This document shows positions 10,596-18,598 of a stretch of 64,000 bases of DNA, piece by piece. The position numbers and the translations under genes are program-made. The notes under the pieces were generated by a model, which did not search any database, was not told the DNA's origin, and worked only from the letters and a program-made list of their open reading frames with translations. Within the stretch, counting starts at the first letter, position 1; the number at the start of each line of letters is the position of its first letter. Origin of the DNA: Bacteroidales bacterium (lineage in GTDB: Bacteria; Bacteroidota; Bacteroidia; Bacteroidales; UBA7960); NCBI GenBank assembly GCA_041687035.1, contig JAWLCS010000010.1:17624-81623 (forward strand), in the 5' to 3' direction.

Positions 10596-10781
10596 ATGCA
10601 GAAAAAACTTACAAAAGGAAGTGACAGGATGCTTGCCGGCGTTTGCAGCGGTATTGCAGAATATTTTGATATGGATCCCACACTGATACGGATTCTTTTC
10701 GTGCTGTTTGCCCTTTTTGCTGGTTCCGGCATTTTGTTATACATCATACTGGCCATTATAGTACCCTCCAAAGGGTATTAA
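10596..10781 (+). CDS. PspC domain-containing small membrane protein
   Basis: 61 aa. RMLAGVCSGIAEYFDMDPTLIRILFV is the PspC-domain signature, followed by one TM helix. Confidence 0.7.
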   Translation: MQKKLTKGSDRMLAGVCSGIAEYFDMDPTLIRILFVLFALFAGSGILLYIILAIIVPSKGY

Positions 10782-10784
10782 GCC

Positions 10785-11270
10785 ATGGCCGAAGGCTTGC
10801 TCATAGCCCTGGGCATAATGCTGTTGGCGGCAGGCGCCCTGGGTGCCTTTGTTCCGGTTTTGCCCGGACCTCCGCTGAGTTTTGTCGGCATGCTGCTTAT
10901 TCACCTCACACCCGGGTATTCTTTTTCGATCAGTCTATTAATTACCTTCGGCATTTTAGCGGCCATCATAACCATCCTCGATTTTGTGCTCCCTGTTTAC
11001 GGTACCAGAAAAATCGGCGGCAGCAAGCGAGGCATGTATGGTGCGGCCATCGGACTGGTGGTGGGCATATTTTTCTTTCCCCCTGCCGGGGTAATTGTCG
11101 GTCCGTTTGTGGGGGCACTTATTGCAGAACTTTCAAACAACAAAGATTTAGGCCCGGCTACCAAGGCAGCTTTCGGAAGCTTGATGGGCCTGCTAGCCGG
11201 TGCACTGCTTAAGTTTGCTTACTCTTTTGCCGTTATTTGGGTTGCCTTGCGCTTGTTAATTTTCAGATAA
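10785..11270 (+). CDS. DUF456-like membrane protein
   Basis: 161 aa with 4 TM helices. VLPGPPLSF near the N-terminus resembles DUF456. Family call is by memory. Confidence 0.55.
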   Translation: MAEGLLIALGIMLLAAGALGAFVPVLPGPPLSFVGMLLIHLTPGYSFSISLLITFGILAAIITILDFVLPVYGTRKIGGSKRGMYGAAIGLVVGIFFFPPAGVIVGPFVGALIAELSNNKDLGPATKAAFGSLMGLLAGALLKFAYSFAVIWVALRLLIFR

Positions 11271-11296: not shown

Positions 11297-11304
11297 TAAA
11301 TTTG
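11297..11304 (+). promoter_or_regulatory. Bacteroidota -7 promoter box (TAnnTTTG)
   Basis: TAAATTTG lies 38 nt upstream of ATG 11342, in a 70-nt AT-rich gap. Confidence 0.4.
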
Positions 11305-11341: not shown

Positions 11342-11974
11342 ATGAGTGACTTTCCTAAAGCCATAGCCAAGCGTTACGATGGACTCTCGAAGCAGAGCTG
11401 CTGCTTGTCCTGCGGGGGAGCATTTTCCCTGGCAAGCATCGAGCCCGGCTTTGTTTGTGTTGACCTTGGATGCGGCAAAGGCCACGATGTATTGCGAATG
11501 GCCACCATGGCAGGCGAAAAAGGCTTTGCCTACGGAGTAGATATTTCTGATGGCATGATTGAAACCGCCACAAAAAATGCGGCCATAATGCGGGCTGAAA
11601 ACGTACGTTTTATTAAGTCCCCCCTGGAAAATATTGATCTTGAAAGCGATGCAGCCGATGTGGTAATTTCTAACTGCACCATAAATCACTCCCTCGATCA
11701 GGCGCGGGTATGGCAGGAAATTTCACGCATTCTCAAAAGCGGCGGACATTTTGTAGTGAGTGACATTTATGCTATGGAGGAGGTTCCCGAAGTTTTCCGC
11801 AACGATCCGGTTGCCGTATCAGAATGCTGGGCAGGAGCCGTAACAAAAGAACAATACCTCAGCCACATAAAAGCAGCGGGGCTTTTTGAGGTTTCCATCA
11901 TGGAAGAATCGGCACCTTATGAAAAAGGATCAATACACGTTGCCAGTTTTACCGTAAAAGGCATTAAACCATAA
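11342..11974 (+). CDS. class I SAM-dependent methyltransferase, arsenite methyltransferase (ArsM)-like
   Basis: 210 aa with the DLGCGKG SAM motif. SCCLSCGG (C20, C21, C24), VVISNCTINHS (C112) and ECWAGAVTKEQY (C162) line up with conserved ArsM segments (GCGNP, ISNCVINL, GCxAGA) as I recall them. Confidence 0.7.
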   Translation: MSDFPKAIAKRYDGLSKQSCCLSCGGAFSLASIEPGFVCVDLGCGKGHDVLRMATMAGEKGFAYGVDISDGMIETATKNAAIMRAENVRFIKSPLENIDLESDAADVVISNCTINHSLDQARVWQEISRILKSGGHFVVSDIYAMEEVPEVFRNDPVAVSECWAGAVTKEQYLSHIKAAGLFEVSIMEESAPYEKGSIHVASFTVKGIKP

Positions 11975-11988
11975 CAAAACATATTGTC

Positions 11989-12096
11989 ATGAAAAGTTTT
12001 ATCAAAAAAGAGAAAAAAGAAAAAGTTCAGGAAAAAGTGAAGCAGGCCCAGTGCTGTGCAAAAACATCATCGAGCCCGGCCGGCTGCCACGACTAA
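11989..12096 (+). CDS. 35-aa Cys-rich peptide, candidate precursor or substrate peptide (absent from the ORF track)
   Basis: Own translation of ATG 11989 to TAA 12094..12096: MKSFIKKEKKEKVQEKVKQAQCCAKTSSSPAGCHD. Sits 15 nt after the methyltransferase stop and 48 nt before the rSAM start. A hairpin with T-run follows it. Confidence 0.5.
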   Translation: MKSFIKKEKKEKVQEKVKQAQCCAKTSSSPAGCHD

Positions 12097-12108
12097 AAAA
12101 ACACCAAA

Positions 12109-12132
12109 GGCCCGTAAAGCGGGCCTTTTTTT
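12109..12132 (+). terminator. hairpin plus T-run (terminator or attenuator) between the peptide ORF and the rSAM gene
   Basis: GGCCCGtaaagCGGGCCttttttt: a perfect 6-bp GC stem, 5-nt loop and T7 run. It lies 13 nt after the peptide stop and 13 nt before ATG 12145. Confidence 0.55.
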
Positions 12133-15458: not shown

Positions 15459-17387
15459 ATGCACAAATCACTCATTGGCTTACTGACTTTTGTCTTGTTA
15501 TTTTCTTTTTCCGCTTTCGCGGAAGCACCCGACACCCTGATCACGCTGTCGGAAGTTTCGATAAGTGCACGCCGGCAGCACGACTTCGGCGCCGGCCACA
15601 GCTCCTCCACCATCGACAGTACTATTCTTCAGCAGCAATCGCAACAGCATCTGGGCTACCTGCTAGGGCGACATTCGGGCATATTCATTAAAAGCTACGG
15701 GCCCGGAATACTGGCTTCTAATAGCCTGCGCGGCGGCCAGCCCGGACAAACGGCATTGATGTGGAATGGCTTCAGCCTGCAAAGCCCCATGAACGGACAG
15801 GCTGACCTGGCGCTGATGCCCGTATTGTTTGCCGACGAGATACAAGTTCAATATGGTGGTGGCAGCGCCCTGTGGGGCAGCGGCGCCATGGGCGGAGCCA
15901 TTTTCATAAACAACCACCGCAGCCGCCAGCTTGGCTTTTCCGCAGAAGCGGGAATAAACACGGCCAGCATTGGCGACCTTGGCCAAAGCCTGAAGCTAAG
16001 CTACGGATTGCAAAACTTTTCGACTACGTTGCGTTTTTTCAACCGCAACGCCAGCAATAAATACCGCTTTGCCAACACTACCCTTCCCGGCAACCCCGTG
16101 GAGGAACAACTTCTGGCTGGCATTTCGCAAACGGGCATTTTGCATGAAACCTGGTTCAGGCTGGGAAACAACCACCAGTTCGACCTGCGCTGGTGGTGGC
16201 AGGACAACGACCGCGACATACCTCCGGCCCTTGATTTTACCTTTTATGAATCCCGACAAAAAGATCAGAGCCTTCGCCTGAGCGGGCAGTGGCAAATGAG
16301 CCTGCCCAGGGTGCTGTTCTTCGTCAGGGGTGCCCGCTTTGAAGATTATCTGGATTATTCCGACAATTTCGATTATGTTGGAAACAGCTACTCTACCACC
16401 CTTACCGGCGAAGCCGAGGCACGCTGGAATCCCCGCAAGGGAATTATTTTTAACGGTGGAATAAACTTACAGGACATTACCGCCAAAGCCGACGAATACG
16501 ATCAGGAGGAGGGCCGCTTTAGCCTTGCCCTGTTTGCTTCGGCCAAGTGGGAGGCCATTGAAGAATCGCTCGAGTTGGTGGTGAGCGGTCGGCAGGAGTT
16601 GGTAAAAGACTATGAGATCCCCTTTGCGCCTGCCATGGGCTTTTCGTGGAAGGTGGCCCCCCAGTGGGCCGTAAAAGGCAATGCCGGCTACAGCTATCTG
16701 CTGCCTTCGCTCAACGCCCTTTTCTGGAACCCCGGCGGCAACCCCGATCTGAAACCTGAACAGGGCTGGAGTGGCGATCTGAGGCTGGAACGCAAACTGT
16801 CGAATGGTAAAAACGACAAAAGCTTCAGCCCTTTTCAGGATGTTAGCATAGGAGGCTATCATCGCAACATCAAAAACTGGATTATCTGGTTGCCCCAAGA
16901 GGACTCGTGGATATGGATGCCCGAAAATCGGGCAGAGGTGCGCAGCTATGGCATCGAAAGTCGCCTGGGCGGCCACTGGCAGCAAGGGCACAACCGCCTG
17001 CAATGGGGTGTGCGCTACGACCATACCATTGCCCGAAACACTAAAGCCGCGGTGGCCGAAGACCCTTCGCTCGACAAGCAGCTGATATACGTGCCCCGCA
17101 ACAGGGTTGGGATGAATCTGGCCTTTATTCATAAAAACCTAAGCCTGACCTACGACCACGAGATCAACGGAAAGCGTTTTACCAACAGTGACAACAGCGA
17201 GTCGCTGCCAGCTTACCACTCGGGCGATGCAGGCCTGCACTGGCACAGGAAGTTTGCTAATTATGGCCTGGGGTTAAATTTAAAAGTAGAGAATATATGG
17301 AACACCCGCTACCAAATCATTGCCAACCGGCCCATGCCGCTGCGCTTTGTGAGGGCAGGCATAAGTTTTTCCTTTCATCAAAAGTAG
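15459..17387 (+). CDS. TonB-dependent receptor, BtuB-like (inferred corrinoid transporter)
   Basis: 642 aa with a signal peptide, a TonB-box-like DTLITLSEVSISA and a plug domain (IKSYGPG...SLRGG), then a long beta-barrel. The corrinoid role is inferred only from the upstream riboswitch. Confidence 0.8.
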   Translation: MHKSLIGLLTFVLLFSFSAFAEAPDTLITLSEVSISARRQHDFGAGHSSSTIDSTILQQQSQQHLGYLLGRHSGIFIKSYGPGILASNSLRGGQPGQTALMWNGFSLQSPMNGQADLALMPVLFADEIQVQYGGGSALWGSGAMGGAIFINNHRSRQLGFSAEAGINTASIGDLGQSLKLSYGLQNFSTTLRFFNRNASNKYRFANTTLPGNPVEEQLLAGISQTGILHETWFRLGNNHQFDLRWWWQDNDRDIPPALDFTFYESRQKDQSLRLSGQWQMSLPRVLFFVRGARFEDYLDYSDNFDYVGNSYSTTLTGEAEARWNPRKGIIFNGGINLQDITAKADEYDQEEGRFSLALFASAKWEAIEESLELVVSGRQELVKDYEIPFAPAMGFSWKVAPQWAVKGNAGYSYLLPSLNALFWNPGGNPDLKPEQGWSGDLRLERKLSNGKNDKSFSPFQDVSIGGYHRNIKNWIIWLPQEDSWIWMPENRAEVRSYGIESRLGGHWQQGHNRLQWGVRYDHTIARNTKAAVAEDPSLDKQLIYVPRNRVGMNLAFIHKNLSLTYDHEINGKRFTNSDNSESLPAYHSGDAGLHWHRKFANYGLGLNLKVENIWNTRYQIIANRPMPLRFVRAGISFSFHQK

Positions 17388-17469
17388 AAAATCAACCTTC
17401 TAAAATACAACTGCCCTAATCAAACACTTTGGGGTTTTTCCAACCTTATTTTTGTTATTTTTGCCGGGT

Positions 17470-17979
17470 ATGAAAGCCATCTCAAAACTTCAGGCATTAA
17501 AGTTGCTGGTTTTGCTGGCCGGCCTCTTTGGCCTGGCCGGCTGCCAGAACGATGAAGTGTGCGAGGAAACCACCGCCAACAAGCTGCGCTTGGGCTTTTA
17601 CACACCGGTAATCACCAGCGGCAGCCCCACCCCCTATACCATCGACAGCCTAAGCGTGTATGGTGTGGGCCGGCCCGACAGCCTCATTTACAACAACCGC
17701 AAAACCGTGCGAAGCATTGAGTTGCCGCTTAACCCCACAGCCAACCGCACCGGCTTTGTACTAATTTTTCCGGAAAATATCACCGACACCCTGTGGGTTG
17801 ACTATCAGACCGAACTGAACTTCATTTCGGCCGAATGCGGCTTCACCATGTTTTTCGATATTGAACAGGTGAGCCACACCAACAACCGCATCAGCTTTTT
17901 TCAGATCAATCAAAACCTGGTAACCAATAGCCTTGAAGAACATATCAAAATACTTCTTTATCCTGATCCTGAGCCTTAG
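17470..17979 (+). CDS. small lipoprotein of unknown function
   Basis: MKAISKLQALKLLVLLAGLFGLAGCQNDE carries a lipobox (LAGC). Start moved to ATG 17470 from track start 17452. Confidence 0.55.
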   Translation: MKAISKLQALKLLVLLAGLFGLAGCQNDEVCEETTANKLRLGFYTPVITSGSPTPYTIDSLSVYGVGRPDSLIYNNRKTVRSIELPLNPTANRTGFVLIFPENITDTLWVDYQTELNFISAECGFTMFFDIEQVSHTNNRISFFQINQNLVTNSLEEHIKILLYPDPEP

Positions 17980-18598
17980 CCTTTCGGCGAAAGCTCAGCA
18001 GGAAGCCGATACACTGGTTTTCAGGCCATCGCTCAGCCTGGGCTACGATGTATCGGGGCTGGCGCTTAATTTGCTCGAGCCCGAAGTGTTTATGCACGGG
18101 GCTTCACTGGGCTATGAGTGGAGGCCCCATTGGATTGCCGCCCTCGAAATGGGAAACATGGACATTGGGGTGCAACGCGAGACGCATACTTATAAAGCCA
18201 GGGGCGTGTTTTTTCGCGCCGGAGTAAATTATAACATGCTGCAGAACAACCCTCGCATGCAGGGCGAAGAAATTTTTCTTTCGTTTCGCTATGGTTTTGG
18301 CTCCCTCACCCATGAAGCGCCGCGCATTACTGTAGATGAGCCTTACTGGGGCAGTGTAGAAAGCTCGTTTGAGCAAGCCGGTTATTCGGCTCACTGGGCC
18401 GAAATTGGCGGAGGACTGAAAACCAGGCTGTTCTGGCACATCTACATGGGTTGGGACCTGCGGCTGCGCCTTATGCTGGCCCGCAACCCAGGCTCCGAAA
18501 TGAATCCGTACTACATTAGCGGATTCGGCAGAAACAAAGGTAATTCCGCCGTAATGCTGCATTATTCCGTTTACTACAAATTTCCTTTCGGAAAATAA
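17933..18598 (+). CDS. secreted, putative outer-membrane beta-barrel protein of unknown function
   Basis: 221 aa with signal peptide ...SLSAKAQQ, alternating aromatic-rich strands and a C-terminal YYKFPFGK. TTG start overlaps the previous gene by 47 nt. Confidence 0.45.
   Translation: MKNISKYFFILILSLSLSAKAQQEADTLVFRPSLSLGYDVSGLALNLLEPEVFMHGASLGYEWRPHWIAALEMGNMDIGVQRETHTYKARGVFFRAGVNYNMLQNNPRMQGEEIFLSFRYGFGSLTHEAPRITVDEPYWGSVESSFEQAGYSAHWAEIGGGLKTRLFWHIYMGWDLRLRLMLARNPGSEMNPYYISGFGRNKGNSAVMLHYSVYYKFPFGK

Follow-up and report, generated by a model that had tools for sequence, protein, structure and literature searches.

What does a short relative of the arsenite methyltransferase ArsM do when its gene stands beside those of a cysteine-containing small peptide and a radical S-adenosylmethionine (SAM) enzyme? 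The question is raised by a stretch of 64,000 nucleotides from a Bacteroidales bacterium (contig JAWLCS010000010.1, positions 17,624 to 81,623; hereafter the window), in which genes for a methyltransferase (MT), a peptide of 35 amino acids and a radical SAM enzyme (rSAM) follow one another on the forward strand (Table 1). A first-pass annotation, made from the DNA letters, had considered an organo-metalloid cluster similar to arsQML, the arsinothricin (AST) cluster of permease, methyltransferase and the radical SAM enzyme ArsL, and had counted a membrane protein further downstream as the permease. We find that the true unit consists of the MT, a peptide of 31-35 amino acids and the rSAM. We tentatively favor, at a probability of roughly 0.4, an intracellular module in which ArsM-type, thiol-dependent methylation of a soft metalloid would be served by the matured three-cysteine peptide as a thiol carrier.

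Gene linkage and distribution

Species-representative genomes were scanned with an alignment of the MT, and at least 530 relatives were confirmed among the 600 stretches listed; an rSAM-anchored scan of metagenome contigs confirmed at least 555 relatives of that enzyme, again among 600. The genome counts given below rest on the best 80 loci (L006-L085) of the at least 530 MT relatives. In about 74 of these 80 the rSAM gene lies just downstream of the MT gene. The reverse test gave the same picture, with an MT upstream in 54 of the 55 rSAM-anchored metagenome loci that had enough upstream DNA. The 80 loci span at least six phyla of anaerobes, and their source groups include Bacteroidota, Ignavibacteriota, Spirochaetota, Myxococcota/Deltaproteobacteria and Chloroflexota. 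The cassette and the peptide core also accompany MTs that are 41-50% identical to that of the window, including clades in which the enzyme has no CC pair of its own. When cultured carriers were sought, every MT homologue examined came from a metagenome-assembled genome (MAG) or a metagenome.

Full-text literature searches found no description of the module, the peptide or the gene combination, and the combination matches no NCBIfam or Pfam family above cut-off. The components belong to known superfamilies and the module is a kind of rSAM/SPASM-peptide system, which could be categorically new if a metalloid is involved.

Two MT copies were present in one Myxococcales MAG (L044 and L067), both in full cassettes whose leaders differ in length and sequence. 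One Ignavibacteria MAG also carries two copies (L062 and L076), and the contig of L076 ends just after the MT, where a second full cassette cannot be confirmed.

The cysteines and fold of the methyltransferase

The MT is a class I SAM methyltransferase (PF13847, 110 bits in a Pfam search). The first-pass annotation had assigned the cysteines of three segments, SCCLSCGG (C20, C21, C24), VISNC (C112) and ECWAGA (C162), to the As(III)-ligand regions of ArsM, and this assignment was borne out by a phmmer alignment with the crystallised Cyanidioschyzon enzyme (CmArsM, 4fr0/4kw7; E 1.4e-23), in which C24, C112 and C162 fall on the As(III)-ligand cysteines Cys72, Cys174 and Cys224. The CC pair at 20/21 sits at the position of the ArsM N-terminal Cys. 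Conservation among orthologues, on which the same annotation had made its proposal depend, was found: in 56 homologues of 58-85% identity C20, C24, C39, C112 and C162 are invariant and C21 is more than 90% conserved. The three ligand positions are nearly always Cys in 105 more distant relatives as well. Judged from these alignments, the conservation of the cysteines is well beyond chance expectation.

The predicted fold points the same way. An AlphaFold2 model of the MT (pLDDT 92) was searched with Foldseek, and the top 13 PDB matches were all As(III) methyltransferases, with TMq values of 0.75-0.79; they include CmArsM, CrArsM and human AS3MT. The window enzyme shares with these proteins and with PRK11873 the class I fold, the three ligand cysteines, the N-terminal CC pair and the motifs VISNC, FxVSD(I/V)Y and ECxxGA, and 37 of the 47 columns that are at least 85% conserved among 61 canonical ArsM-like representatives are identical in the MT family.

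Some canonical ArsMs carry C-terminal Cys tails, and several orthologous MTs (L025 (P0116), L066, L068, L071 and L074) have short Cys-rich C-terminal tails that resemble them and also resemble the CC motif of the separate peptide (...GGCCCNH, ...SECNCGTK, ...SSCGCK..., ...GKCSCNEKV and ...KVSCC). The sequence TAAATTTG at 11297-11304 of the window, 38 nucleotides 5' of the MT start codon, conforms to TAnnTTTG, the -7 promoter motif of Bacteroidetes; a clear TTTG at -33 was not evident.

A nearly invariant peptide and an adjacent hairpin

In one set of loci the small open reading frame (ORF) was found in 81 of 86, in a second set in 78 of 80. Its product begins with a leader that starts MK(S/T)L(I/V)KK and ends in a core that has 16 residues at every locus, A-Q-C-C-A-K-x-S-x-x-x-x-G-C-H-D-stop. 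Variation in the core is limited to S/T/A at position 8 and to isolated changes of A to T (1), Q to L (2) and D to N (16). Across the 78 distinct DNA versions of the gene, every synonymous codon occurs at the invariant residues and each of the three stop codons is used; selection therefore acts on the protein. The peptide matches no NCBIfam or Pfam family. As the first-pass annotation had described, the vicinal Cys motif stands on this separate peptide beside the rSAM gene.

Between the peptide and rSAM genes lies a GC-rich hairpin that looks like an intrinsic terminator or attenuator. A stable hairpin was found 3' of the peptide stop codon in 56% of the homologous loci, compared with 10% of control segments.

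In S3 As(III) sites such as Cys12/13/18 of ArsD and Cys95/96/102 of AfArsR, a vicinal Cys pair and one further Cys bind the metalloid within a folded protein. The module peptide likewise has a vicinal pair and one more Cys, but its motif is carried by a 16-residue, putatively rSAM-modified peptide, with a spacer of nine residues and an adjacent invariant His.

Two high-GC metagenome contigs (L090 and L091) have an extra ACCAPK in the leader, upstream of a normal AQCCAK...GCHD core, so that the CC motif is partly duplicated; the MT next to it (P0362) is without the N-terminal CC pair.

The radical SAM enzyme is a SPASM-type maturase

The first-pass annotation had also held that the rSAM is of SPASM type and unlike ArsL, and three lines of evidence agree with it, namely the alignments to known maturases, the SPASM pattern of cysteines and the match to the CteB structure. 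In 25 homologues the radical SAM cysteines C92/C96/C99 and C276, C331, C349, C388, C391, C397, C401 and C417 do not vary, and C334 hardly varies. The best NCBIfam scores were obtained with CefB (148 bits, cut-off 600), TIGR04463 (127 bits, cut-off 525) and PapB (111 bits, cut-off 340). Among solved structures the enzyme comes nearest to CteB, the SCIFF thioether synthase (E 4e-19), with ChlB, anSME and SkfB next; the nearest families and structures (CefB, TIGR04463, PapB and CteB) act on Cys-rich peptides. The Pfam SPASM model gave no match to the enzyme at E<=0.01, and its C-terminus is without RCCLKC. NCBI names the homologues only 'radical SAM protein'. Because the alignments to CefB, TIGR04463 and PapB run the full length of the enzyme and all lie far below the cut-offs of the named families, sequence comparison places it in a new family of Cys-peptide SPASM maturases, not of ArsL type.

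By analogy with its nearest relatives, the enzyme probably shapes the peptide by introducing one or more Cys-derived cross-links. The module resembles SCIFF/CteB, PapB (ranthipeptide) and CefB in placing a short Cys-containing precursor beside a full-length rSAM/SPASM enzyme, and SCIFF in particular in its strongly conserved peptide and in having no linked protease or exporter. It differs from all of these in its core QCCAK...GCHD, which is unique to the module, and in its ArsM-like MT and thioredoxin/thioredoxin-reductase (Trx/TrxR) partners, which are unreported for such systems in the literature searched.

Accessory genes

Recurrent neighbors were identified by clustering the genes around the 80 genome loci. 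The most frequent partner, carried by most lineages, is a Trx/TrxR fusion of 424 amino acids; of the 80 genome loci 48 have it adjoining the cassette, and of 50 metagenome loci that could be evaluated, 40. Further cytoplasmic thioredoxins were counted in 23 loci, where their genes often separate the MT from the peptide; DUF302 is found near the cassette in 18 loci and DUF1847 in six, and OsmC-like neighbors occur as well. No recurrent peptidase or protease and no recurrent exporter or transporter appeared among the neighbors of the 80 loci. Together with the invariant core, this points to an intracellular cofactor-like or carrier role for the peptide rather than to a secreted antibiotic.

A divergently transcribed zinc-ribbon protein of 144 amino acids is present in 20 loci. 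It has an IS1595-type zinc-ribbon N-terminus, is encoded on the opposite strand immediately upstream of the MT (for example L039, 6432-6866, reverse strand), and was found in loci of Prolixibacteraceae and Rikenellaceae. Its function may be regulatory rather than that of a transposase. Neighboring regulators of the MarR, HxlR or Crp types are occasional. The apparent second methyltransferase of some loci was set aside as an unrelated class I methyltransferase free of cysteines.

A proposed function for the module

ArsM obtains As(III) from the tri-thiolate As(GS)3 through thiol exchange and methylates the metalloid bound by Cys174 and Cys224; transient As(V) intermediates are reduced via a disulfide cascade that includes the N-terminal Cys pair, and thioredoxin is believed to reduce the catalytic disulfides again (PMC6138428). 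In ArsL, the C-terminal RCCLKC binds As(III) and is required for formation of the C-As bond (bioRxiv 10.1101/2024.02.01.577332); the first-pass annotation had been right to give ArsL a Cys-rich motif for As(III). The module peptide has a comparable vicinal Cys pair followed by Lys (CCxK), which by analogy with the ArsL tail could bind As(III). The ligand triad of the MT, the dedicated Trx/TrxR and a peptide that combines the CC pair, a third Cys and CCxK are together consistent with methylation on a carrier peptide. The Trx/TrxR fits ArsM-type methylation because a simple SN2 methylation would need no reductant.

Every chemical step of the following scheme, the nature of the rSAM modification and any involvement of a metalloid, whether arsenic or another, are what we infer. 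In the first step, the rSAM would bind the Lys-rich leader (MKSLIKK...) and modify the core A-Q-C-C-A-K-x-S-x4-G-C-H-D, most likely by introducing one or more Cys-derived thioether cross-links of the kind made by its nearest relatives. The matured peptide would then remain in the cell as the dedicated thiol partner of the MT: its CC pair and third Cys, together with the His, would hold a soft trivalent metalloid, for which As(III) is the precedent, and pass it to the Cys24/Cys112/Cys162 site, a role like that of As(GS)3 for canonical ArsM. In the third step, SAM-dependent methylation of the ArsM type would follow, and the resulting disulfides would be re-reduced by the linked Trx/TrxR or, in the window's clade, by housekeeping Trx.

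Distance from canonical ArsM enzymes and other difficulties

A number of findings weigh against this proposal, beginning with the classification of the MT. Its best NCBIfam match is to 'arsenite methyltransferase' PRK11873, aligned only to profile positions 62-233 of 272, and the score is 168 bits against a cut-off of 263. Canonical proteins of 270-293 amino acids from an exhaustive HMMER search served as controls and cleared this cut-off at 266-363 bits, while five short relatives failed at 153-208 bits. The AST-ArsM models gave 85 bits (NF040538, cut-off 500) and 74 bits (NF040539, cut-off 240), and the arsenosugar-ArsM model gave 64 bits (cut-off 400). The phylogenetic placement that the first-pass annotation had proposed as a check went the other way: the MT lies below all the NCBIfam ArsM cut-offs, and in a neighbor-joining tree built on the MT core (crude, distance-based and lacking support values) the family of the window and other clades of 200-226 amino acids fall outside the canonical clade, which holds CmArsM and proteins of 240-295 amino acids.

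An operational definition of ArsM asks for a SAM domain and at least three of four conserved cysteines (CmArsM 44, 72, 174 and 224) (PMC5552862). With its SAM domain and with C24, C112 and C162 aligned to Cys72, Cys174 and Cys224, the MT would count as an ArsM by this definition, though not by curated hidden Markov model (HMM) cut-off or by tree position. The alignments and the tree together place it in a short sister clade outside canonical ArsM. JGI labels many homologues 'arsenite methyltransferase', and NCBI names the MT only 'methyltransferase domain-containing protein'.

The structure of the family adds further difficulties. Unlike ArsM and AS3MT, the window enzyme is about 60-80 residues shorter; the short forms are without the C-terminal domain and have an internal deletion of about 40 residues in the segment that links the (K/R)Y...CC element of the N-terminus to the S/G-C-G motif. 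Three clade-specific changes, V39C, V113T and L116H, lie beside the active site and flank the equivalent of Cys174.

Genomic context is no more favorable. The MT family is found without an ars operon at the loci examined and is tied to the peptide and the SPASM rSAM, again unlike ArsM and AS3MT. The first-pass annotation had seen no arsR, arsC or acr3 nearby, and indeed no ars operon gene (arsR, arsC, acr3/arsB, arsA/arsD) was found among the Pfam-annotated genes in the roughly 8 kb that flank the MT on each side; nor was there any recurrent ArsR, ArsC, Acr3 or ArsB among the neighbor clusters of the 80 loci. The Trx/TrxR fusion is missing in the window's own clade, and no copy lies within the 64-kb window. 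One locus (L014) has an MT alone, with no rSAM, and another (L030) has no peptide. Carriers of the module number at least 530 species-level genomes, and their habitats are ordinary anoxic ones, not specifically arsenic-rich. Finally, if all three Cys of the peptide are consumed in thioethers, none would be left for a metalloid.

Alternative explanations

Much of this evidence would suit a classical ribosomally synthesized and post-translationally modified peptide (RiPP) without any metalloid, in which the SPASM enzyme makes sacti- or ranthi-type thioether bridges from the three Cys, the MT, recruited as a tailoring enzyme, adds methyl to an S, N, O or C atom of the peptide, and the cysteines of the MT serve in peptide binding, in mixed-disulfide capture, or in a structural or Zn role. 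The closest relatives of the rSAM are thioether-forming maturases, and the gene order runs from precursor through hairpin to maturase; an MT that lies outside canonical ArsM and has changed residues by its active site, neighborhoods without ars genes, and a very wide spread over ordinary anoxic environments are all in keeping with such a peptide, as is a degenerate MT relative (P0378) that adjoins a PqqD-type gene. Against this, the Cys triad and its flanking motifs are strictly retained, and to our knowledge all characterised enzymes with the ArsM Cys triad methylate As(III)-type substrates. The tight linkage of Trx/TrxR is also hard to reconcile with a simple SN2 methylation that requires no reductant, and the lack of a recurrent protease or exporter and a core that is invariant rather than diversified are both atypical of secreted RiPPs. 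A plain RiPP with the peptide itself methylated is an unlikely but serious contender, nearly as likely as the favored carrier reading.

The degenerate relative just mentioned, a short form at L175 that has lost the equivalent of Cys72, stands beside the PqqD-family gene and other small genes and not in the usual cassette; it may represent a different peptide-modification context.

The redox partners admit a further explanation, to which we give a small share of our belief: the peptide could be a redox cofactor or mini-redoxin whose CC pair (plus C14 and H15) forms a redox-active or metal-binding center that the rSAM only rigidifies. It would shuttle electrons or sulfur between Trx/TrxR and the MT or some other target, and the methyl acceptor would be a non-metalloid such as sulfide, persulfide or selenide. 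The Trx/TrxR, extra Trx, DUF302, DUF1847 and OsmC-like neighbors suit this proposal, as do the apparent retention of the peptide in the cell, an invariant core like that of cofactor precursors, and the presence in NCBIfam of selenoprotein (UU) ArsM-like families. The window's clade, which has no Trx/TrxR, speaks against it; we know of no precedent for a redox-cofactor peptide of this type and of no role for the ArsM ligand triad in S or Se methylation.

Slightly less likely still is a scheme in which the peptide is a reusable As(III) carrier acting in trans, like the RCCLKC tail of ArsL, and delivers As(III), chelated by its CC pair and third Cys, into the SPASM active site for formation of a C-As bond. 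A carbon radical on the peptide itself or on a SAM-derived fragment would join the arsenic, which the ArsM-like MT would then methylate. Free exchange of As-S bonds could release the product with no protease involved, and this would explain the missing peptidase and exporter as well as the invariant core. If this holds, a ribosomal peptide would for the first time be the template of an organoarsenical pathway, and a metalloid would for the first time be known as the target of a SPASM enzyme.

It is very improbable that the MT is a stand-alone ArsM detoxification gene that is by chance a neighbor of an unrelated rSAM-peptide pair. The JGI label on many homologues and the solitary MT of L014 would allow it; the two-way gene linkage over at least six phyla, and the occurrence of the same peptide beside MTs down to 41% identity, argue otherwise.

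An arsinothricin-type arsQML cluster, with permease, MT and ArsL-like rSAM, has hardly any chance of being correct: the trio of gene types is superficially alike and QCCAK is similar to the RCCLKC tail of ArsL, but two of the three legs of the analogy fail, the rSAM being a full-length, CteB-like SPASM enzyme and not ArsL, and the supposed permease being a membrane protein without a family and unlinked to the cassette, and the MT falls far short of the AST ArsM model. A radical SAM gene does stand beside an ArsM-type MT gene in this module, in arsQML and in the arsenosugar ArsM/ArsS system. Unlike both, the module has a SPASM maturase with two auxiliary-cluster motifs, not a 3-amino-3-carboxypropyl- or 5'-deoxyadenosyl-transferring enzyme, and an MT far below the AST and arsenosugar ArsM models; unlike arsQML, it carries its Cys motif on a separate ribosomal peptide and has no linked permease. 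We regard both coincidental adjacency and a true arsQML cluster as effectively excluded. The earlier interpretation thus stands in part: the ligand cysteines, the closeness of ArsM folds, the SPASM rSAM and the absence of ars genes hold, and the arsQML likeness and membership in canonical ArsM do not.

Neighboring genes

The features of the window around the unit are listed in Table 1.

Table 1. Features of the window at and around the methyltransferase-peptide-rSAM unit
Feature	Position	Strand	Remarks
Type-IX-secretion cargo protein, 1213 aa	5369-9010	+	Por_Secre_tail, CBM and Big domains
Type-IX-secretion cargo protein, 505 aa	9023-10540	+	Por_Secre_tail, Endonuclease_1
PspC-DUF456 pair	10596-11270	+	After the cargo genes
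ArsM-superfamily SAM methyltransferase (MT), short, 210 aa	11342-11974	+	CC pair C20/C21; ligand cysteines C24, C112, C162; clade-specific C39, T113, H116
Precursor or carrier peptide, 35 aa, MKSFIKKEKKEKVQEKVKQ-AQCCAKTSSSPAGCHD	11989-12096	+	Lys-rich leader and 16-residue core nearly invariant across phyla
GC-rich hairpin GGCCCG-TAAAG-CGGGCC and seven T's	12106-12131	+	Between peptide gene and rSAM gene
Radical SAM/SPASM peptide maturase (rSAM), 434 aa	12145-13449	+	CX3CX2C motif C92/C96/C99 and nine further conserved Cys, C-terminal half
Polytopic membrane protein, 512 aa	13542-15080	+	'Permease' of the first-pass annotation
Cobalamin riboswitch RF00174	15121-15321	+	108 bits; directly upstream of TonB-dependent receptor
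TonB-dependent receptor	15459-17387		Behind cobalamin riboswitch
DUF6452	17452-17979		After TonB-dependent receptor
DUF6048	17933-18598		After DUF6452

The membrane protein was rejected as a member of the unit, and the permease leg of the arsQML analogy fails, because it is absent beside 79 of the 80 genome loci, the exception being the close relative L006, and is also encoded where no cassette is near: Alkalitalea saponilacus and a Balneolales isolate both have it in unrelated neighborhoods. It has no Pfam, NCBIfam or PDB relative, and its AlphaFold2 model (pLDDT 64) gave nothing significant in a fold search. Its homologues in Bacteroidales, Marinilabiliales and Balneolales, many of which have alkaline or saline sources, are 77-100% identical, and the protein carries two similar motifs, SHSGLTGA (residues 318-325) and SHFGLFAA (441-448), in its C-terminal half. 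It represents an orphan and apparently important transporter-like family.

The TonB-dependent receptor, DUF6452 and DUF6048 genes were also rejected as members, since they are preceded by their own cobalamin riboswitch and therefore form a separate B12-regulated unit, which looks like a B12/corrinoid uptake unit. Many Bacteroidales loci, among them L014 with its missing rSAM, show synteny between this block and the cassette. On the other side, the PspC-DUF456 pair is syntenic with the cassette only inside the window's Bacteroidales clade.

Significance

The module is widespread and its peptide core is nearly constant, yet its parts bear only generic names in the databases. The labelling of the MT family as 'arsenite methyltransferase', as practiced by JGI, matters for arsM surveys of anoxic environments: if arsenic is not a substrate of the MT, this family would inflate the arsM inventories drawn from metagenomes of anoxic soils and sediments. 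Either way, the module offers a well-defined three- or four-gene target for heterologous reconstitution. Should the carrier reading be true, it would describe a new kind of ArsM partner and a new role for a RiPP-like peptide, and if the MT methylates arsenic, anaerobes that lack glutathione may depend for this on a dedicated, rSAM-matured thiol peptide.

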